Source: an uncultured Gammaproteobacteria bacterium (lineage in GTDB: Bacteria; Acidobacteriota; Terriglobia; Bryobacterales; Bryobacteraceae). From it: a DNA stretch of 64,000 nt. The position numbers and the translations under genes were made by a program. Below the pieces are notes generated by a model. It did not search any database, was not told the origin of the DNA, and saw only the letters and a list, made by a program, of their open reading frames with translations. The stretch is from NCBI GenBank assembly GCA_963799935.1, contig CAWCZA010000023.1, forward strand, positions 38,037 to 102,036. The letters run 5' to 3'. Numbering within the stretch: the stretch's first letter is position 1; each line of letters opens with the position of its first letter. Positions 42,930 through 53,064 of the stretch are shown piece by piece.

Positions 42930-45900
42930 CTAAGCGCGACGCATCGGGCCTTCCACTACTTCCGTAATCTTCTGGAGCAAGGTTTGCGGGCGGTAAGGCT
43001 TTTGCAGAAACCCGGTAATCTCGGCGGCTTCGATCTTAGACATGACATCGTTTTTGGAGTACCCGCTGGAAATAATGACGGGGACCGTCGGCGCGATCCG
43101 GCGGAGCCGGGTGAGGGTCTCTTTCCCACCAATCCCCGGCATCGTGAGGTCGAGCAAAACCAGCGAGACCGGCTCCCCTTTCTCGATGATTGCCAGGGCC
43201 TCTTCTCCGCGGTGTGCGCCAAGCACCCGGTAGCCGTGCCTGCTGAGGTAAGCCGACCCGAGCGTGACGACGGATTCCTCGTCATCGACAATCAGCACCG
43301 TGTGATCGCCGGTCGACACAGGCTGCTTCGGCTTATCCGTCGCCCTTGAATCCGCCGGTACAAGAACTAGAACCGTCGTGCCCTGACCAGGCGCTGTGGT
43401 GATGTGGATCGCGCCTCCGTGAGCACGCACCGTACCCGCGACCGCCGCCAGTCCCATGCCTCGTCCCGCAAACTTGGTGGTGAAGAATGGCTCGAAGATC
43501 TTGTCCCGGATGTCGGAAGGGATCCCGCAGCCCGTGTCCTTTACTTCGATCGCTGCGAAAGCTCCCGGCGTGATGTCCGCGCTCCGAAGCACGCCTTGGA
43601 TGTAGCTCTCGTCGATTTGCCGAATGTTGGTTCTGACGGTAATTGTTCCTGATTCCGTGCCGTCCATCGCCTCGCGGGCATTGGTTAGCAGGTTGACGAT
43701 CACCTGCCGGATTTGTGCCGCATCCCCCGCGATCGTCACGCCGGGTTCGGCGTATTGCTCGATGCGAATGTTCGGCCGGAGCTTCCCCTCGATGGAGGAG
43801 ACGGCTTCGCTTGCAATCCGGGACACGTCCACTTTTTCCCGGGGGTTCAGCCCTTGACCGGAGTAAGCCAGCATCTGCGCGGTAAGAGAGGCAGCCCGCT
43901 CGCCGGCAGCAATCACGTCGTCCAGAAACGGAATCGCGGTGTGATCCGTAGGCAGCGATTCTTTCGCAAAACTCGCCGACCCAATGACGCTCACCAGAAG
44001 GTTATTGAAATCGTGTGCCAACCCGGCTGCCATCACGCCGATGCTTTCGAACTTCTCCGCCGCGGCAAGTTTTTGTTCGAGCATTTTCCTGTCGGTTATG
44101 TCGCGAGCCGTTCCTATTACTCGGACCGGTTCGTGTGCTTCCCCATGCGAAACCGCACCCTGGAACTCGATCCACTGGATCCCGTCATCGCCGGCGATCC
44201 GGACCGTGCGAAACCATGCGGCATCCTGACTCACGGAGGTTCGGAGAGCGGATTCGAAGCCCTCGCGATCGGAGCCATGAATGCGCGCCAGAAATGTCGC
44301 GGAGGCTTACCGGGCCCGAGATGTTTGAAGCCGATCGAACAGCCCGGCAATCTCTTCGGAGCACGGACCGTGTTGTCGGCCAGGTTCCACTCCCACACCC
44401 CCATCTTTCCCGCTTTCAGGGCGAGATGAAGGCGCTCGCGGCTTTCCCGCAACGCGCATTCCGCTCGTTTGCGCTCCGTGATGTCGATGCTAATCCCCAT
44501 CACGCGGACCGGGCGCCCGCTCTTGTCGAAAACGAAGCGTCCGCGAGTCATGAGCCAGCGAACAGCGCCATCTTTCCTAACCAAACGAAACTCTGTATCG
44601 ACGGATGATTCGCTCGGGTTCAAAAACCGTTCGCGATCCGCGGGATGTACGCGCGCCAGCCAATCCTGAACGCCGAAATTTCGGCCGGATTCCAATTCGA
44701 ACAGCTCATAGAATTCGGGCATTTCGGTATAGCGGTCATTCACAAGATCCAGATCCCACGCAACCAGACCGGCGCTTGAGTGCGCCAGCCGCAGCCGCTC
44801 CTCACTCTGACGGAGTTTCTCTTCGACTAGTTTTTGCTGATGAATGTAGGTGCAGGTTCCATTCCAACCGGTCACACGACCAGCTTCATCCTTGATCGGA
44901 ATCGCGCGCGAGAGATGCCATTCATATTCTCCGTCCTTATTGCGCAATCGATGCTCGATTTCGAACTTAGTTCCAGTGCCGATGGATTGGTTCCACTGGC
45001 TGAGCGTACGGTCCCGGTCTTCCGCATGAATCCAGTTCACCCAGTAACCGCCGAGTGCCTCCGCCGCAGGGCTACCCGTGTACCCTAACCACTGCTCATT
45101 TATAAACTCGGTTTCACCCTCCGCGTTAGCTGCATACACGATTTGAGGCATCGCATTGGCTAGAGATCGATAGCGCACCTCGCTAGCCTCCAACGCTTGT
45201 TCCGCTTGTTTGCGATTTGAGATATCGCGCGAGATGGTGGAATAGCCCGTCAATTCGCCGCTGTTATTACGCACACCGGAAACGGTCACCGCGACTGGAA
45301 GCAAACAGCCGTTCTTACGAATCCGCGTTGTCTCGATGCCCTGCGCAGGAACGCCATTTGCCGCATCGTCCCGCAAGCGGTGAAGCTCTTCGAGTTTGTC
45401 GGAAGGCACCAGAATCTCGAACGGCTTTCCAATCACCTCTTCCGCGGTGAAACCATAGGTCTTTTCCGCTCCGCTATTCCACGTTCTGATAATCCCGTTC
45501 ACATCTTGATAGCTGACTGCGTCGGCCGTTGCCTCTACCAGAGAGGCCAGCAGGCTTTGCGCCGCCTCCGCATTTTTTCGTTTGGTGATGTCGCTGATCA
45601 GGACAACGTAAGATGCTGGTTCGCCCGCTTTTCCGTCCGCAAGGCAAATACTCTCCTGCACCCAGACCGAACTGCCGTCGGACTTCCGGTAGAGCTTCTC
45701 TCCTTCGGCGTGTCCTGCGGTCAGAACTACAAGGGGTCCTGCAATGTTCTGCAAGTTGCGAGTCACCAGGTCTTCACGGCTGAACCCGGTTACACGGCAG
45801 AACGCATCATTCACCAGCATGATGCTTCCGTCGAGCGAAGTCTGCGCGACGCCAACGGCGCTTTGCGAAAAGATGGCTTCGAGTTGCGCCAGGTTCCGTG

Positions 45901-46375
45901 TTACTTCCAGGTTGGCTTGAAGCAGGTTCTTGTGCGCGGCAGCAAGGTCTCGCGTCATCCTGAACCGTTCGCGAGCATGGCTAATTGCTCTACTCAACGA
46001 TTCCGGCGTAGTTTGATCTTTGACCAGAAAATCTTGTGCACCCGATTGGATGGCTCGTGCGCCTAGATCTTCCTGGCCGTAGATAGTCAACACGATAATC
46101 GGGAAATCGATGGCGCCCGCTTCCTTTAGCCGTTCGAGGAAACCCAGCCCATCGAGCTGCGGCATTCGCATGTCGAGTAGCACACAATCGGGCTTGCGCA
46201 GCCTGCATTCCCGCAAAGCTTCGACAGCCGACGGGCATTCCCTAATCACGAATTTTCCGAGACTCGGGCTCTTAAGTTGCCGACGAATCCCCGCGATATC
46301 TTCGGGTGAATCGTCAACGATCAAAATGTCGATCGGTTCTGTTGCTTCGATCTCCATCGCTGCGCTTGCGCTCAT
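42930..46375 (-). pseudogene. Receiver-multiPAS-HisKA-HATPase-receiver hybrid kinase, interrupted by a frameshift (~44362) and an in-frame TAA (44307-09); real lesions or assembly errors
   Basis: ATG 46375 overlaps the RR stop. LLDMRMP receiver, about 5 PAS domains, [25 protein letters not shown]. The second frame reads SEEIAGLF...*...TFLARIHGSDRE. Confidence 0.8.
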
Positions 46376-46824
46376 AGAGCTGATCCGGTCGCCGGAAGCG
46401 TCACAGCCTTCAGCCAATAGTTCGCCATTTGCTCGAGCGACGTCCGAAATCGACCTAGATCGACAGGCTTGACGATATAGCCTGCCGCGCCGTTTTCGTA
46501 GCAATAATTGACGTCTTTGGGATTAGAGGATGTGGTGATGATAACCACGGGTATCCGCTTCAGCCGCTCCTCGCTCTTCAGTCGAATCAATAGGCTGCGG
46601 CCGTCTTCGCCAGGCATATTGAGATCCAGTAAGATCACATCCGGCCAGAGTCCACGGCCCCGGTCCGAGCCGTCTGTCATGGAACTAAGAAGATCCATCG
46701 CCGACACCGCGTCGTTACAGCGTGCGATTGGTCGGTCGGTGCAACCGGCCAGCAGCCGTTTCGCTGTCTGAAAGTCTTCCTCGCTATCCTCGATCACAAG
46801 AATTACCCGGCTAACCCGTGACAT
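46372..46824 (-). CDS. Single-domain response regulator of the phytochrome-associated (Rcp1/BphR) type
   Basis: ILVIEDS, ILLDLNMP, IITTSS, YIVKP and YWL; directly downstream of the phytochrome. Confidence 0.9.
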   Translation of the reverse strand: MSRVSRVILVIEDSEEDFQTAKRLLAGCTDRPIARCNDAVSAMDLLSSMTDGSDRGRGLWPDVILLDLNMPGEDGRSLLIRLKSEERLKRIPVVIITTSSNPKDVNYCYENGAAGYIVKPVDLGRFRTSLEQMANYWLKAVTLPATGSAL

Positions 46825-46832
46825 AAGTCTTT

Positions 46833-49091
46833 CTACTTGGTACCGATCGTGAAGAGAAAGGTTGACCCAATGCCGGGCTCAGATTCCACCCAAATGCGGC
46901 CATCATGCCTTTCCAGAATCTTCCTTACTATCGTTAGACCCGTTCCTGTTCCCCCACCAAACCGATCCCGCGCGTGTAAACGCCTGAAAATCTGAAATAT
47001 GCTCTCGCGATGCTCGGGAGCGATCCCAATCCCGTTGTCCCTAACAAAAAAAACAGGTGTGCCGTTCACGTCCCGGGACCCAATCTCGATCCTCTTCAGC
47101 GGCTTGTCGTTGTATTTGAGGGCGTTCGAGATCAGGTTCGTGAACACCTGGCCCAACCGCGGGTAATCGGCAACCACCAGAGGTAGACGACCTAGCACCC
47201 GAACCTCGGCCCCCCCTTCTTCGATCCGGGTCGCAAGGGTATCGAGAACTTCCTCGACCAATTCATTCACGTTGCAATCCTTTACGGTCATTCCCTCGCG
47301 GCCCAAGCGGGAGTAATTCAGAAGGCTGTCCAGCAGGTCGTCCATGCGACAGGTCAGCCGGATGACGGCTTTTAACTTCGACACCGAGTCGTCGTCCAGT
47401 TGCTCGCCGACATCCTCCAAAAGGAATTGCGTGTAGTTGTGGATGCCGCGCAGCGGTTCCTTCAGATCGTGCGAAGCGATATAAGCGAAGGCGTCGAGCT
47501 CGACATTGGTGCGCTGCAGACTCTGATATAAGCTTTCTAACTCTCCGACGCGGCGCGCGGTGATCTCGAGTAACGCGTTCCTCAGCTTGCTAGCGGCTTC
47601 CACCTCGACGTCTTTCCATGGCCGGCATTGCTGACGCACGGTTTCTTTCCAGATCGCGAAGGAGGTGCGCGGCATCAGACGCTGCCCGTCATCCGATAGC
47701 TCCACCGGCTTCTTTGGATCGCCCGCCCATTGCACCGTCTGCTCAAACTCCGGCCGGAACCAAAGGATGAAGTCATTCAGAGCCGCCGAGATCCGAATCG
47801 CCAACAAGCCGCTCGCAGTTTCCGCGAACTGGCTCGCCTCGGGATACACAGCAGGAAGGCGACTGGTCGAGAAAACCGAAATGTCTTTCTTCGAAAGCCA
47901 GTCCGTCAGCTTTTGCACTTGCGACGCGTCCGGTGTTTTTCCCATTAGGAGCGGTTGGTCTCCTGTGACCACTGCTACTCCTCCGGCATCGATGAAGTCT
48001 CGTAAGCCCGGACTTCGATCGATCAAAACCTTGACTAAGTCGCTCGAAACCGCGAGTTCGCCGACGATGTGCGCATGCACGGACTGTAGTTTGGTCCGGT
48101 ACTCCCGGTTTTCCTGATCCTCTTTACCGGAGAGCTGCAAGGAAACCATGTGCGCCAGAAATTCGCAGGCTGCCCGAATCTCGAACGGAACATGCTTGGG
48201 ACCGGTGTGGTGGTGACATGCGATCAGCCCCCACAACTCGCCGTTCTTTAGCAGCGTTATCACCATGCTCGATTGAGTACCCATGTTCTTCAGGTACTGC
48301 GAGTACATGACGGAAACGCTGCGCAGTAGAGCGTAGGAGAGGTCGAGCGGTTGGCCGGTATCGGGGTTGATCGCGGGTTCAATCGGGGACGGCTGGTAAC
48401 CGATATCCGGTTGGTGTCGGACCCAGGTCAGCTTGAACAAGCGCCGCGCGGGCAGGGGAATATCCGAGGCAGGGTAGTGCAGTCCAAGAAAACTGTCGTG
48501 CCCCTCGGCCACAGTTTCCGCGAGGACGGCGCCGCTTCCATCTTCCAGGAACTGGTAAGCCATTACCCGGTCGAAGCCGGTAAACTCCCGGAACTGCCGC
48601 ACCGCGAGATCCAGGAACTCTTGGACGGAGCGGGTGTGTTCGAGCGCAGCGACATCGGCATACAATCTGGAGAACAGGTCGGCGCCCACAGGCACCGCCG
48701 TCTCGTTCCGCAGCTCGAACTCGGCAATCAGTACGCCGCCGCACCGGTGCAGGAACGTGTTAAATGACCGTTCGCCGATCTCAAATCGTCCGCAGTGTTG
48801 GGGAGCAGCGTCTGCGTGGATTTTCGCGCCACGGCCTCGCAGCTCATCTAGGCACGCAGTGTCCAGCCATGAATCGGCGGGTTGACCGAGGATGCGGTCC
48901 AACGGCTGGCCTGTAAAATCGGCCGTGTTTACACTGGCCTGCGTCACAATCAGTCCGGGCTCCTGAAGAACCACTAGAAAGCCGTGGGCCAGAGTTGCTG
49001 ACGCGAACTGAATCTGTTCGCGGTCGCAATTGCTCAAATCCACCTGGCTCGGATATACGACCTTGGAAAGCGATGCGCCGGTGTCAGGCAT
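46833..49091 (-). CDS. bphP: Bacteriophytochrome histidine kinase (PAS-GAF-PHY-HisKA-HATPase)
   Basis: DLSNCDRE (bilin Cys), DRVMAY, YPASDIP, WGLIACHH, WAG...PRTSF tongue, SHDLKEPLR H-box. Alternative TTG start at 49103. Confidence 0.95.
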   Translation of the reverse strand: MPDTGASLSKVVYPSQVDLSNCDREQIQFASATLAHGFLVVLQEPGLIVTQASVNTADFTGQPLDRILGQPADSWLDTACLDELRGRGAKIHADAAPQHCGRFEIGERSFNTFLHRCGGVLIAEFELRNETAVPVGADLFSRLYADVAALEHTRSVQEFLDLAVRQFREFTGFDRVMAYQFLEDGSGAVLAETVAEGHDSFLGLHYPASDIPLPARRLFKLTWVRHQPDIGYQPSPIEPAINPDTGQPLDLSYALLRSVSVMYSQYLKNMGTQSSMVITLLKNGELWGLIACHHHTGPKHVPFEIRAACEFLAHMVSLQLSGKEDQENREYRTKLQSVHAHIVGELAVSSDLVKVLIDRSPGLRDFIDAGGVAVVTGDQPLLMGKTPDASQVQKLTDWLSKKDISVFSTSRLPAVYPEASQFAETASGLLAIRISAALNDFILWFRPEFEQTVQWAGDPKKPVELSDDGQRLMPRTSFAIWKETVRQQCRPWKDVEVEAASKLRNALLEITARRVGELESLYQSLQRTNVELDAFAYIASHDLKEPLRGIHNYTQFLLEDVGEQLDDDSVSKLKAVIRLTCRMDDLLDSLLNYSRLGREGMTVKDCNVNELVEEVLDTLATRIEEGGAEVRVLGRLPLVVADYPRLGQVFTNLISNALKYNDKPLKRIEIGSRDVNGTPVFFVRDNGIGIAPEHRESIFQIFRRLHARDRFGGGTGTGLTIVRKILERHDGRIWVESEPGIGSTFLFTIGTK

Positions 49092-49683
49092 CTTTGCCGG
49101 CAAACCATTCGTGCAGCGACGAGAAGGTGTTTCGGGCGGACTCGCAAATTGCCTCCTCGTGATCGGGGTTGGCGAGAACGTAAGACTCTGCCGACGCCCG
49201 GAAATGCCGCCACATTAAGCCGACGTCGGGGCCATAACTCCTGAACCACTCGTGAGGAAGGCGCGGATCAAGCTGCTCGATTCGCCGGGCAATAATCTGT
49301 CCGCCGAGAGTAGAGCCTTCGAGCACATACAAGTACCCGAGCGCCTGCGCAGGCGTGTCAAGAAGCGGGATATTCTGACAGCGCGGCAATCGTCGCAGCG
49401 AGTGGTCGTACAGCCCGAGATTCATCAAGTCTCCCTGAAGCACAAATGCCCGCATGCGACTACTCAGGTCGGGCACTACAGCCTTCAGCCACGGAACACC
49501 CGCGAGTTGCTGCTCGGCGGGTTTAACGAACCCGAGAAACAGCTGAAGCAAGGAGCAATAGCTGGAAGAATCCCCGGTCAAGAAGGACTCAACCTGCCGC
49601 TCGACCGCCTGATGCTCTGCCTCGGTTTCCAACTTCAGCCGGGTCAGAATGGACGGACTTGCCGTGCTTCTGGTGTGTGTCAT
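49084..49683 (-). CDS. bphO: Biliverdin-producing heme oxygenase
   Basis: LKLETEAEHQAVE (heme His) and YVLEGSTLGG; overlaps the phytochrome start. Confidence 0.92.
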   Translation of the reverse strand: MTHTRSTASPSILTRLKLETEAEHQAVERQVESFLTGDSSSYCSLLQLFLGFVKPAEQQLAGVPWLKAVVPDLSSRMRAFVLQGDLMNLGLYDHSLRRLPRCQNIPLLDTPAQALGYLYVLEGSTLGGQIIARRIEQLDPRLPHEWFRSYGPDVGLMWRHFRASAESYVLANPDHEEAICESARNTFSSLHEWFAGKDA

Positions 49684-49807: not shown

Positions 49808-50461
49808 CTAAGACGAAATAATCTGGTTGTGTATCGCGTACCGGACCAGTTCGCTAAGCGACTTCAGGCCCAGCTTGTCCATGATGTTTTTGCGGTGGGT
49901 TTCTACGGTCTTGACGCTGATTTCTAACCGCCTAGCCGTTTCCTTGTTGGTGCAACCTTCGGCCAGAAGTTGAATGACCTCGCGTTCCCGCGGCGAAACC
50001 CGGGACGGCAGTTCTGAGCCCGCACCAGCTTCAGACTTCTCGCGCAGGCTTCTCATCACGAATTCCGACACGGAAGACGTGAAGAAGACCCGCCCAACCA
50101 GCAGAGCTTCCACGGCGGCGATCAAATCTTCCCCGGCATCCGCCTTCAGCACGTAACCGCGCGCGCCGGCGATGAGCATCTCACGCACGAGTTGTTCGGA
50201 ATCGTGCGCCGAGAGAATCAGAACCGGGAGCGATGGAAAGTCTTTGCATATCTGCCGGGTCGCTTCGATGCCGTTCAGATCCGGCATGTTGACGTCCATC
50301 ACCACGATGTCCGGCGGTTCTTGCCGCACCAGCTCCACGGCCTGTCTGCCGTTGCTTGCTTCCCGGAAAACTTTCCAACCCGGATGCGATTCCAGGATCA
50401 GCCGAAGCCCTTGCCTCACGACCGCGTGGTCGTCGGCGATAGTGATGCGAACCGTCGTCAT
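49808..50461 (-). CDS. NarL/LuxR family response regulator
   Basis: ADDHAVVR, VMDVNMP, and HTH SPREREVIQLLAEG...KTVETHR. Confidence 0.95.
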   Translation of the reverse strand: MTTVRITIADDHAVVRQGLRLILESHPGWKVFREASNGRQAVELVRQEPPDIVVMDVNMPDLNGIEATRQICKDFPSLPVLILSAHDSEQLVREMLIAGARGYVLKADAGEDLIAAVEALLVGRVFFTSSVSEFVMRSLREKSEAGAGSELPSRVSPREREVIQLLAEGCTNKETARRLEISVKTVETHRKNIMDKLGLKSLSELVRYAIHNQIISS

Positions 50462-53064
50462 TTCGACGCCATCGTTAACTGCACGCGAGGCAATTGCACT
50501 CTGATGATCGTGGAGCCTGGTCGGGATTTGATGGTGATTTCTCCACCCAGCTGGCGTGCTCTCTCGCGCATGCCCCGAATTCCTACACCTAACGCACGAA
50601 CCGAGGAGTGACCGTCGATCACATCTTGCGGTATGCCCAGGCCTTTGTCAGACACCTCCAGCACAATCGAATCATCGAAACACTCCAGGCGGACTCGCGC
50701 CACGGTGCTTCTGGAATGACGATGCACGTTGCCGAGCGCTTCCTGCGCAATGCGAAATAGAGCGGTTTCGGTTTCCGCATTCAGCCGGCCCGCTTCTGCC
50801 AGATCCAGCTGCAGATTCAATCCGGTCCGATCTGCGAATCCTAACGCCCATCCGCGCAACGCCGACGTCAAGCCCAACTCATCGAGGATCGGTGGGTGCA
50901 ACAAGTAAGACATGTTTCGCATCTCAGCCCAGCATTGCTTCACCCATTTCAAACAGTCCGCCGCCACTTCCTGCTCATGCGGCAGCGCCAATATGTTTTT
51001 GGAACGCGCCAGGACCGACAGATTCATGGCCGCAGCGGAGAGCGTCTGGACCGGGCCATCATGCAGCTCGCGAGCTAATCGCCGTCTCTCCTCATCTTGC
51101 AGGCGGAGCAGATCGCCCGAAAGTTCATGCAAGGATGTGTTCGCTCGTTGTAGTTCCCCTTCCGCCCGCTTGCGCTTGGTGTTGTCCCACGTTACTCCAG
51201 TGAAGCCGAGGAGATGGCCGTGCCTCCCGACCAGCCTCTGCCCGCGGCTCGCATACCACTTGAACTCGTCGTGCGCCGCGTGAGACTGGCCGGTTTGAAC
51301 CCGATACTCAATCTCCTGAGGTTCCCCGTTTTTCAGCGCCTCTCCGAAAGCGATCCAGCGCGCACGATCTTCAGCCCCAAACGCCTCGTGCGTTCCCCGG
51401 ACCGGCCCAGGTATAGCTGAGGACATTACGGCGGCAACCAGCGAGTCGAGATCGAAAGAGTCCGGTCGGTCCGGTTCCCATCGCCAGATACTCATTTCTC
51501 CCGCTTGAAGCGCCAGGTCCAACTCCTCCTTGCTGCGCCGGAGAGCTTGCTCGGTCTCATATTGCGCAGTGATATCGCGAATGGTCTGGACGACGAGAAT
51601 CGGATCGCCATTCTCGTCTGAAACCGGAGCGCCCCCGAAGCTGGCAATGAAGCGCTTGCCCGTGTCGAGCCGGATTACTTCCAGTTCGTACCCGGAAATT
51701 GTTTCGCCGCGCAGAATCCGGGCGAGTGGCCAGTTGTCCATGGGCACGAACTCTCCATCCAGGGTCCGTAGCTCAAACTCGAGATACTCGCCCAGGTGTT
51801 TTTTCGCGTTCTCTTCAGACTCGATTCCCAACAATCGAATCGCGGCGGGATTCATGGAGAGGACAGTTCCACTCGGATCAGCGATCACGATGCCCTTGGT
51901 GATGCTGCGAAGCACCGCCTCCAGTCGCCGCAGTTCCTGCTCCGCGTCCCGGAGTCGTTCCGCCCGCCTGAGTTCCATCATGTCCCGGCCCTCCGCGATG
52001 ATCAGGGACACATCGCCTGCCGGGTCAGGCAAAGGACTAAGCGAAAAGTCGATCGTCGTTGACAGTTGTCCCTTGCCCCAAACGTTGACCTCATACCGCA
52101 CGAATTCACCGCGCGCGGCACGAGCCACCGATTGCCGGAGGCGATCCTGGGTTTCAGTCGAGATTTGCCACCATCCCGCATCCCAGAACGGCTTGTCGAT
52201 CACCTCTTCCCGGCTTAAGCCGCCAAACACCAGCGCGGTCTGGTTCACTTCGAGGAGTGTTCCGTTCCGGTCCAGCAGCCCGATGAACTGAAAGGTTTGG
52301 TCGAAGATGGCGTGGAATCGTTGTTCGCTGCGACCAAGGGCGAGCTCGGCTGTTTTGTACGCCGTGATGTCCACAAAAGTGCCTGTGAACCGCAGAGGGC
52401 GCCGGTTGGAATCCGTGGCGGCTACTTTGCCTCGGGCGAGAACCCAGCGCCACTCGCCTGATTTGCTGTAAAGCCGGTGCTCCGATTCATACTCGGCGAC
52501 ACCTCGTGCAAGACGAGCATCCTTCAGTTGTGCCGCCACTCGCTCCCTGTCATCAGGGTGGACCAGTTCCGCCCATTCCCAATATTCCGGCCTGATCTCG
52601 TTAGGTCCATAACCCAGCAGATTCGCCGACTTGTCGTTGACCTCCACGCGGCCGGTCGAGATGTCCCAGTCCCACAACGCGATATTTGCTCCTTCGAGAG
52701 CCAACTGCAGATAAGCCCGGCTTTCGTCAGCTTCCTGCTCCGCGGCTTTAAGGGAACTCGGGTCTGCAATATACGCCGGTGGGTTGCGATCCGCAATTTC
52801 TACCGGTTGGGAGGCCGGCGAAAAGAGAGTCACGGTCGCGGTCCCGGCGCCGAAGGGAATTAGCCATGAGGTTAGCGACCGGCACTTCTTTTCCAGTGGG
52901 CTATGTTCGCCCGCGACACCCATGCAGCTCTGCGCCGCTGGGTTCGCATACACAAGCCCCTGTTCGCTTTGAACGGAAACTGGAAGCCTGCATTTGTCGA
53001 AGAGCGCGGCAAGTTGCATGTTCTCCGTGTGCTGCGGTTGGGGATTCGACTGGATCGTGTCCAT
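50458..53064 (-). CDS. Cytoplasmic multi-PAS histidine kinase, HisKA_3 (NarX/UhpB) class
   Basis: WDWDI, VHPDDR, FWDAGWW, ERRRLARELHD, RIAQEALGNV and GIRGMRER; no TM helix seen. Confidence 0.92.
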   Translation of the reverse strand: MDTIQSNPQPQHTENMQLAALFDKCRLPVSVQSEQGLVYANPAAQSCMGVAGEHSPLEKKCRSLTSWLIPFGAGTATVTLFSPASQPVEIADRNPPAYIADPSSLKAAEQEADESRAYLQLALEGANIALWDWDISTGRVEVNDKSANLLGYGPNEIRPEYWEWAELVHPDDRERVAAQLKDARLARGVAEYESEHRLYSKSGEWRWVLARGKVAATDSNRRPLRFTGTFVDITAYKTAELALGRSEQRFHAIFDQTFQFIGLLDRNGTLLEVNQTALVFGGLSREEVIDKPFWDAGWWQISTETQDRLRQSVARAARGEFVRYEVNVWGKGQLSTTIDFSLSPLPDPAGDVSLIIAEGRDMMELRRAERLRDAEQELRRLEAVLRSITKGIVIADPSGTVLSMNPAAIRLLGIESEENAKKHLGEYLEFELRTLDGEFVPMDNWPLARILRGETISGYELEVIRLDTGKRFIASFGGAPVSDENGDPILVVQTIRDITAQYETEQALRRSKEELDLALQAGEMSIWRWEPDRPDSFDLDSLVAAVMSSAIPGPVRGTHEAFGAEDRARWIAFGEALKNGEPQEIEYRVQTGQSHAAHDEFKWYASRGQRLVGRHGHLLGFTGVTWDNTKRKRAEGELQRANTSLHELSGDLLRLQDEERRRLARELHDGPVQTLSAAAMNLSVLARSKNILALPHEQEVAADCLKWVKQCWAEMRNMSYLLHPPILDELGLTSALRGWALGFADRTGLNLQLDLAEAGRLNAETETALFRIAQEALGNVHRHSRSTVARVRLECFDDSIVLEVSDKGLGIPQDVIDGHSSVRALGVGIRGMRERARQLGGEITIKSRPGSTIIRVQLPRVQLTMASK

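Follow-up and report, generated by a model that had tools for sequence, protein, structure and literature searches.

A bacteriophytochrome of a Bryobacterales-like acidobacterium from an apparently uncharacterized lineage with tyrosine in place of His260

The phytochrome gene and its bilin pocket

We analyzed a bacteriophytochrome (BphP) gene in a 64-kb window, that is, the whole stretch of DNA under study (64,000 nucleotides of contig CAWCZA010000023.1), from a Bryobacterales-like acidobacterium. The gene, located at 46833..49091 on the minus strand (as are all features given below), encodes a histidine kinase of 752 aa from its ATG and falls in a group with tyrosine at position 260 that we call lineage A. 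Its reading frame is free of interruptions over 752 codons, an alternative in-frame TTG start lies at 49103, and no second phytochrome was found in the 64-kb window. Pfam domains were matched with scores far above gathering: PAS_2 at residues 22-126 (48714..49028), GAF, which holds the bilin pocket, at residues 156-320 (48132..48626), PHY at residues 336-514 (47550..48086), and an output module (46845..47495) of HisKA at residues 533-597 and HATPase_c at residues 642-749. The matches to PF08446, PF01590, and PF00360, which exceed the gathering cut-offs, identify a PAS_2-GAF-PHY photosensory module, and those to PF00512 and PF02518 identify a HisKA-type sensor histidine kinase. The score against NCBIfam model NF041576 (“bacteriophytochrome BphP”) was 290 bits, against a curated cut-off of 1040; this model is a narrow equivalog, so that the score places the protein outside that orthologous group rather than outside the phytochromes.

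Unless a residue is assigned to the window protein, we use the numbering of Deinococcus radiodurans BphP (DrBphP), whose sequence was verified at 14 landmark residues; the equivalences agree with those that phmmer gave when the window protein was aligned to SaBphP2 (solved structure 8uph). The landmarks Cys24, Tyr176, Asp207-Ile-Pro, Arg222, Arg254, Ser257, Tyr263, Ser272, His290, PRxSF, and the H-box histidine of the kinase were all retained. PAS_2 starts at the bilin-attachment residue Cys22 (Cys24 equivalent, within “SNCDRE”; 49026-49028) and includes the knot-threading segment QIQFASATLAHG (48981-49016). The GAF domain, which includes P214, R217, H226, S260 and Y266 (the Ser257 and Tyr263 equivalents), and S275 of the window protein, carries PASDIP with D210 (48456-48473) and H293 in ACHH (His290 equivalent; 48213-15), and the PHY domain carries WAG (in WAGDP), the PRTSF tongue motif with R475 and S477 (47658-47672), and the clade-specific R433. 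The phospho-acceptor His541, in the H-box “ASHDLKEPL” (47469-47471), is near-invariant in the lineage alignment. Four pocket positions were changed, namely Y216F (Phe219; 48435-37), P258V (Val261), H260Y (Tyr263; codon at 48303-05), and S274V (Val277; 48261-63). The original prediction, made from the sequence alone, had listed the attachment Cys, PASDIP, the Arg254, Ser257, and Tyr263 equivalents, ACHH, PRTSF, and the H-box as intact and had named these four substitutions; every coordinate was confirmed, and the substitutions proved correct to the base in both the phmmer and the DrBphP alignments.

The segment R257-SVSVMY263-SQYL (48291-48323) matches “RSVSPIHLEYL” of SaBphP2 and “RATSPMHMQYL” of DrBphP with no gap. 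We considered a shift in the alignment that would misplace the tyrosine and rejected it: the stretch from Arg254 to Gly268 was gap-free in every comparison, with Ser257, Tyr263, Asn266, Met267, and Gly268 anchoring every sequence. Hence, Tyr occupies position 260 itself and not a neighboring one. With respect to known classes, the window protein has Met262 where Cph1-type phytochromes have the chromophore Cys at 259, has Tyr263 where BphPs have His260, and keeps, as does the whole lineage, the attachment Cys whose loss defines the achromo-BphP4-like proteins.

Several public runs labeled as metagenomes of soil, moss, and peat contained the sequence. In three other runs among these, contigs over 48200-48500 had an unaltered Tyr codon and differed at six sites, all of them third codon positions; five of these differences were synonymous, and the remaining one (I278M) turns the SSMVITL of the window into the lineage consensus SSMVMTL. 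The BphP gene is evolving under purifying selection. An artefact of sequencing or assembly, or a decaying pseudogene, might be suspected from the metagenome-type assembly and from a frameshift in a neighboring gene (see below), but the intact 752-codon frame, the same Tyr codon in three independent runs with almost purely synonymous variation, and the same residues across all 119 nearest homologs leave this explanation with a negligible probability, and we regard it as already refuted. The original prediction had likewise argued against decay and sequencing noise, and rightly so.

An AlphaFold 2 (AF2) model built from a 22-sequence lineage alignment had a mean predicted local distance difference test score (pLDDT) of 84, with about 90 in the photosensory module, about 65 in the tongue, and less than 50 at residues 1-28. 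The best Foldseek matches were photosensory modules in the red-absorbing (Pr) state (target-normalized TM-score: FiDCB, 0.92; SaBphP2, 0.91; Agp1, up to 0.91), and E-values against BphP and Cph1 structures ranged from 1e-62 to 1e-43. The modeled tongue was strand-like and not helical, at low confidence, which may be taken as a slight indication that the dark state is of the Pr type.

The best solved relative is SaBphP2 of Stigmatella aurantiaca (PDB 8uph, 8upk, 6ptq), which aligned over the full length (phmmer E 5.8e-160); identity was only approximately 36-40% in the structural comparison. The two proteins have in common the PAS-GAF-PHY-HisKA-HATPase architecture, an N-terminal Cys, the RSVS...YL.NMG helix, PRxSF, and the H-box “SHDLKEPLRGI”, whereas the SaBphP2 pocket reads SPIH (Pro258, Ile259, His260), ARALY (Tyr216), and SFS (Ser274) in place of SVMY, ARRLF, and SMV in the window protein. 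Cph1 of Synechocystis (PDB 2vea; phmmer E 2e-103), as the example of Cph1-type cyanobacterial phytochromes, resembles the window protein in “DIPxPARRLF” (Pro211, Arg214, Phe216), in “YLKNMG”, in its kinase type, and in a non-Ser residue at 274 (Thr, where the window has Val). However, Cph1 binds phycocyanobilin on GAF Cys259, retains His260 (…HCH…), and has no N-terminal Cys, in contrast to Met259, Tyr260, and the BphP-type N-terminal Cys of the window protein. Several lineage-A proteins are labeled “sensor kinase Cph1” by JGI.

Tyr-260 lineages and their distribution

The photosensory module served as the query against 5.8 billion proteins, and the 119 best matches (46-67% identity) were aligned. 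Tyr260, Val274, Pro211, and Arg214 were each present in all 119 of these nearest homologs, Met259 and His223 in 117, and Phe216 in 112, and Pro258 occurred in two, with Val (90) or Ile (15) at this position in most others. The attachment Cys was found in 117 of 117 homologs, and Tyr176, Asp207, Arg254, Tyr263, Arg466, Ser468, and Phe469 were invariant in the lineage. Our working definition of lineage A is accordingly Tyr260, Met259, Val274, Pro211, Arg214, Phe216, and His223 with Cys24 kept; the window protein carries each of these signature residues, whose frequencies among the 119 homologs were 94-100%. Among 114 cluster representatives of the His type, the same residues were rare or absent (Tyr260, 0%; Val274, 4%; Pro211, 2%; Arg214, 23%; Met259, 10%; His223, 2%; Phe216, 11%). 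When alignment columns were ranked by how well they separated 26 main-clade representatives from these 114, the discriminating positions were Tyr260 (100% against 0%), Pro211 (100% against 2%), Val274 (100% against 4%), His223 (92% against 2%), Met259 (100% against 10%), Arg429 (96% against 6%), and Phe216 (100% against 11%). The suggestion that the pocket had changed in a coordinated manner under selection is therefore borne out, as Tyr260, Val274, Met259, non-Pro258, and Phe216 occur together in the 119 homologs and are rare or absent in the His type. SVMY does co-occur with Phe216 and Val274 as a clade, as had been proposed for checking, and the combination of Tyr260, Met259, and a non-Pro residue at 258 was seen again in two further lineages.

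An exhaustive HMMER search of a 1.84-billion-protein library (one representative per 50%-identity cluster, covering approximately 15 billion proteins) returned 3701 matches below 1e-30. Among the best 150 of these 3701 representatives, 117 had His at position 260, 27 had Tyr, and six had Cys. Tyr260 was accompanied by Met259 (27/27), non-Pro258 (24/27), and Phe216 (25/27), and His260 by Pro258 (111/117), Tyr216 (99/117), and Ser274 (86/117). A neighbor-joining tree, from which the diagnostic columns had been removed beforehand, showed one main Tyr clade and small separate Tyr groups elsewhere; of the three members of the main Tyr clade that had His, two had Pro or Ser at 258 together with Ile259.

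In the alignments, lineage A is a natural lineage with Tyr for His260 together with apparently co-evolved Val258, Met259, Val274, and His223 and with Cph1-like Pro211, Arg214, and Phe216. Its distinctive core is Tyr260, Met259, the loss of Pro258, Val274, and His223, and Pro211, Arg214, Phe216, and non-Ser274 are not new, being common to the Cph1 type. The Cph1-type locus of Synechocystis salina (L098), for example, reads DIPQPARRLF and ...SLTISL. For this reason, Y216F (“ARRLF”) cannot be counted as novel remodeling, as had originally been supposed. Likewise, the unusual knot segment is not a class feature: QIQFASATLAHG carries ATLAHG, with Thr35, Leu36, and Ala37 for Ile, Gln, and Pro, and this variant is confined to a sub-clade of the nearest 6-10 or so relatives of the window protein, the lineage consensus being QIQ[FY]xGAIQPHG.

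Many lineage-A members outside this sub-clade (e.g., proteins P0095, P0100, and P0109 and loci L029, L039, and L050) have S[CA]MHH where the window protein has ACHH. In a gap-free alignment, these members also have Met in place of the D-ring-binding His290.

A compilation from 2025 (PMC12362586) comprises 41 sequences from studies of BphPs; each of the 40 BphPs aligned there has His at 260, and no lineage-A member is among them. We found no Tyr-260 entry in the PDB with lineage-A and lineage-C queries (lineage C is defined below), every alignment shown having His260. Nor did we find, in the searchable literature, a description of a natural Tyr-260 phytochrome or of an H260Y mutant, or anything of relevance on phytochromes from the host taxa, with RpBphP4, BrBphP3 of strain BTAi1, and Ppr left uncompared. 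The proposal of a new photoreceptor subclass thus holds insofar as a distinct clade exists that has no member in the compilation or among the PDB structures whose alignments were inspected, but this clade is a widespread lineage and not unique to the window; we apparently deal with an uncharacterized lineage of a known kind of photoreceptor, of interest mainly at the level of the lineage.

Two scans, in which each species was represented by a single genome (GTDB), gave the distribution of lineage A, which extends over several bacterial phyla and includes Hyphomicrobiales. Within Acidobacteriota, it was present in metagenome-assembled genomes (MAGs) of Bryobacterales and Terriglobia. It was also found in Hyphomicrobium zavarzinii, Methylocystis, Bradyrhizobium sp. 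ORS375, Rhodoblastus acidophilus, Rhodopila globiformis, Rhodopseudomonas faecalis, and R. pentothenatexigens, in Thiocystis, Thiobaca, and Thiohalocapsa (Chromatiaceae), in Methylococcales and Crenothrix, and in Nitrospira moscoviensis, one Gemmataceae MAG, and one Solirubrobacteraceae MAG. Tyr-type genes made up 67 of the best 80 loci in the second scan.

A DNA pattern for M-Y-x-x-Y-L-x-N-M-G, scanned over species genomes, gave at least 120 matches. Among the 120 matches listed, at least 84 were Tyr-260 phytochromes, which fell into three lineages (A, at least 24; C, at least 55; B, at least five), and none of the 84 had Pro258. Lineage C (motif RGASVMYTEYLxNMGVAAxLTMPI) occurred in many Burkholderiales; its members came from Polaromonas, Rhodoferax, Rubrivivax, Janthinobacterium, Variovorax, Verrucomicrobiota, Planctomycetota, and Gemmatimonadota, and lineage B (motif RGAS[RQ]MYTEYL) in Polyangiales (Myxococcota). 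Lineages B and C resemble lineage A in Tyr260, Met259, non-Pro258, and mostly Phe216, and Cys24 and the PRxSF landmark were inspected in seven cluster representatives. They differ from lineage A in their separate position on the neighbor-joining tree, the motif RGAS[VRQ]MYTEYL, the lack of His223, a canonical PIHIPG knot, and Thr at 274, Val274 being specific to lineage A. Because all three lineages have Met259 and lack Pro258, the sequences point to coupled evolution of these positions with Tyr260. The replacement of His260 by Tyr would have occurred at least two or three times, a count of origins that is tentative since it comes from a neighbor-joining tree only.

Lineage C outnumbers lineage A among the pattern matches listed. 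Lineages B and C are held by loci L104-L223, for instance L112 (Polaromonas), L118 (Janthinobacterium lividum), and L106 and L172 (Myxococcota).

The bacterium has no close species representative; its methylmalonyl-CoA mutase was at most 75% identical to those of Candidatus Solibacter and Bryobacterales MAGs. Some of the runs that contain the BphP sequence (X2, X24, and X25) carry a single-organism label, and Hi-C and poly-A RNA libraries are among them, which suggests that the bacterium is an associate or a contaminant of a eukaryotic host, in line with the matches to moss metagenomes.

Operon and gene neighborhood

Directly upstream of the BphP gene, at 49084..49683, lies a bphO-like heme oxygenase gene (199 aa; Pfam PF01126, E 6.5e-12), whose proximal His (“LETEAEH”) and Gly-rich distal helix (“EGSTLGG”) align with those of HemO (1j77). 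The end of this gene, with its stop codon, and the ATG of the BphP gene overlap by 8 nt (ATGCCTGA), and the two genes are translationally coupled. An intact, coupled bphO had been part of the original prediction, and the PF01126 match, the 8-nt overlap, and the proximal His agree with it.

The same prediction had also raised a different tetrapyrrole, for which we found no support, as Cys24 is invariant and linkage to a heme oxygenase is common. In its more specific form, this explanation holds that another biliverdin isomer or a reduced bilin is bound in place of biliverdin IX-alpha. Two propionate hydrogen-bond donors, Tyr216 and Ser274, are indeed both lost, and the only PDB relatives of the heme oxygenase are HemO (1j77) and the beta/delta-regiospecific enzyme of Pseudomonas aeruginosa (1sk7), both weakly similar. 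Nevertheless, the operon has no bilin reductase gene, the N-terminal Cys of the biliverdin type is invariant, residue 259 is Met and not the Cys of Cph1 and plants, the propionate holders Arg254, Arg222, and Ser257 are kept, and Phe216 is found in Cph1 as well. We consider an alternative chromophore very improbable.

Downstream of the BphP gene, with its ATG 8 nt past the BphP stop, is a gene for a single-domain response regulator of 150 aa (46372..46824; Pfam PF00072), the probable phosphotransfer partner of the BphP. Its stop is overlapped (ATGA) by the start of a gene for a receiver and multi-PAS protein (44231..46375), probably the next step of the pathway. The open reading frame that follows (42930..44234; HATPase_c and receiver) begins with the second half of a split PAS_3 domain; its product and that of 44231-46375 probably make up a single hybrid kinase, of which it would form the C-terminal part. 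The split lies at 44231-44420: the frame shifts just past “...WNLADNTVR” (approximately 44365), and the continuing frame also has a stop codon. Contigs from two other runs have one extra A after 44365, so that related strains probably encode a single long receiver-PAS-kinase-receiver protein; the split in the window reflects either a true shift of the frame or a fault in the assembly. A four-PAS HisKA_3 kinase and a response regulator of the LuxR/NarL type are encoded immediately upstream, on the same strand (49808-53064), which places the phytochrome operon within a larger signaling island. The promoter scan found no sigma-70-like sites, and terminator-like sites were fewer than in shuffled sequences, with none on the coding strand at the gene junctions or within the heme oxygenase, BphP, and response-regulator genes.

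A heme oxygenase gene directly preceded the BphP gene in 28 of 59 lineage-A loci, and a response regulator gene directly followed it in 48 of 63. These figures bear on whether the protein could be a light-blind phytochrome derivative that senses redox state, heme, or bilin availability. The achromo-RpBphP4 of Rhodopseudomonas palustris is reportedly such a derivative, one that does not sense light and has lost the attachment Cys. The loss of the proton-handling His, the many PAS sensor kinases around the gene, and the lineage-A loci with no adjacent heme oxygenase gene would fit this idea. On the other hand, the attachment Cys occurs in every one of 117 homologs, Asp-Ile-Pro, Tyr176, Tyr263, His290, and PRxSF are retained, and the heme oxygenase gene is coupled here and directly upstream in about half of the lineage loci, a conservation that would be pointless without a photoactive bilin. 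A light-blind role is thus improbable in our view.

The order of BphP, response regulator, and receiver-PAS-kinase genes recurs at locus L050 of Bradyrhizobium ORS375. As this order is kept between an alphaproteobacterium and an acidobacterium, it suggests that the BphP-response regulator-(receiver-multi-PAS-kinase) module travels as a unit by horizontal transfer. The L050 protein belongs to lineage A and comes from a cultured, genetically tractable phototroph; it differs from the window protein in having 48% identity to it, no adjacent heme oxygenase gene, and “SAMHH” instead of “ACHH”. A bacteriophytochrome specific to ORS375 and possibly identical with the L050 protein has been placed on a horizontally acquired island, with no functional data according to that paper (PMC3899966). 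ORS375 has this single lineage-A locus, which is not beside pucBA, and its pucBA-linked BphP was not among the lineage-A matches, which argues that the pucBA-linked group is not lineage A. Similarly, Rhodopseudomonas locus L077 had no pucBA or regulator neighbors.

Tyrosine at position 260 and photochemistry

In the structures of DrBphP, Cph1, and PaBphP, the alpha face of the bilin is covered at rings B and C by His260, which bonds the pyrrole water; together with Ser272 and Ser274, this His bonds the ring-C propionate, and Tyr216 bonds the ring-B propionate. His260 is central to photoactivation models, in which it buffers the protonated bilin and holds the pyrrole water. A recent femtosecond crystallography study described it as “strictly conserved” across the phytochrome superfamily and as buffering biliverdin, proposed an ultrafast change in its protonation within 300 fs, and noted that DrBphP mutants at His260 lose formation of Pfr (the state that absorbs far-red light) except for H260Q, which still photoconverts (PMC12533598, 2025). 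The H251T variant of ReBphP, like the DrBphP H260 and Agp1 H250 mutants, yields a Meta-Rc-like photoproduct (bioRxiv 10.64898/2026.03.03.708993). These mutants, altered in the same 257-263 helix, are the nearest experimental analogs. They are, however, laboratory changes in a His-adapted pocket that mostly lose Pfr or stop at Meta-Rc-like products, whereas the window protein has a natural Tyr with co-evolved neighbors.

Since the parts of a BphP kinase are all present and conserved, we assume that biliverdin is bound at Cys22 and that light controls the phosphorylation of the regulator. In the proposed mechanism, the upstream heme oxygenase would make biliverdin, which would be attached at Cys22 and held by Asp-Ile-Pro, Tyr176, Arg254, Ser257, Tyr263, and His290. 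Light-driven isomerization of the D-ring would refold the PRxSF tongue and set autophosphorylation at His541, from which phosphate would pass to the adjacent single-domain response regulator and then, probably, to the downstream receiver-PAS hybrid kinase. In the simplest interpretation, the hydroxyl of Tyr260 may stand in for the imidazole as hydrogen-bond partner of the pyrrole water, of the ring-C propionate, or of both; the loss of the Ser274 hydroxyl would be a compensating change, and that of the helix-breaking Pro258 would give the helix room for a larger side chain. The phenol of Tyr cannot tautomerize or buffer protons near neutral pH, and measurable differences from His-type BphPs are hence predicted. 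The shifted spectra and altered pH dependence put forward in the original prediction likewise stand as predictions.

We favor, with moderate confidence, a functional biliverdin-binding, light-regulated histidine kinase with a co-evolved Tyr pocket that differs from that of the His type. We lean, to about the same degree, toward the prediction that the difference can be measured as a shifted chromophore pKa or pH dependence, altered proton transfer from Pr to Pfr, an altered photoproduct or dark reversion, and possibly a different absorption maximum. Several points weigh against this interpretation. Bilin binding, spectra, and kinase regulation are all deduced from sequence, the contacts of Tyr with the propionate or the water are modeled from His-type structures, the AF2 model is unreliable for residues 1-28, which include the attachment Cys and directly precede the knot segment, and a few characterized BphPs lie outside the compilation and our comparison, as noted above. 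Moreover, the breadth and age of the lineage could equally fit a Tyr that is compensated and functionally silent.

This last point leads to the view that the protein is an ordinary Pr/Pfr BphP in which Tyr260 and its companions amount to compensated, near-neutral packing with canonical spectra, pH behavior, and signaling. Apart from these changes, the tongue and all residues that matter for photochemistry are canonical, the fold matches photosensory modules in the Pr state, the operon has the classical bphO-bphP-response regulator composition, and Pro211, Arg214, and Phe216 already occur in the normally behaving Cph1 type. The photoconversion of DrBphP H260Q (PMC12533598) further means that His is not absolutely required. 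Yet His260 is found in 40 of the 40 aligned BphPs of the compilation, other substitutions impair Pfr formation, and the coupling of Tyr with Met259 and the loss of Pro258 in three lineages, with Val274 fixed in lineage A, suggests a distinct optimum and not drift. We therefore regard an ordinary BphP as possible, if doubtful.

Going beyond the co-evolved Tyr pocket that we favor, we suggest only tentatively that Tyr-260 phytochromes form a photochemically distinct class, in which, for want of an imidazole to buffer or pass on protons, the cycle from Pr to Pfr would use a Tyr-based hydrogen-bond or proton relay or would end in a photoproduct other than classical Pfr (deprotonated, Meta-Rc-like, or near-red). 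If this were true, the His260 mechanism would not be universal, and the proteins would offer new scaffolds for the near infrared that differ in their response to pH, their fluorescence, or their kinetics. Natural Tyr-260 lineages in any case contradict the premise of a “strictly conserved” His260 (PMC12533598), and they are natural experiments on the role of this His and on compensating changes at positions 258, 259, and 274. Should their spectra, pKa, or kinetics differ, they could serve as templates for near-infrared probes and optogenetic tools; should they behave normally, mechanisms that rest on imidazole chemistry would be constrained. Cultured and tractable lineage-A hosts include Bradyrhizobium ORS375, Rhodopseudomonas spp., Hyphomicrobium zavarzinii, and Nitrospira moscoviensis.

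A second phytochrome paralog, with Cys at position 260 (RSMSRMCSRYYLNMG), is encoded just upstream of the Tyr-type gene in Methylococcales and Chromatiaceae and in some Acidobacteriota. Such a Cys, placed above the B and C rings, could provide another thioether linkage, as in dual-Cys phytochromes. The paralog mostly retains the N-terminal Cys; it is represented by proteins P0168, P0170, and P0232 and was located at positions 1462 (locus L055), 1490 (L056), 1280 (L065), 1517 (L069), 1367 (L081), 726 (L082), 1440 (L099), and 3718 (L097).

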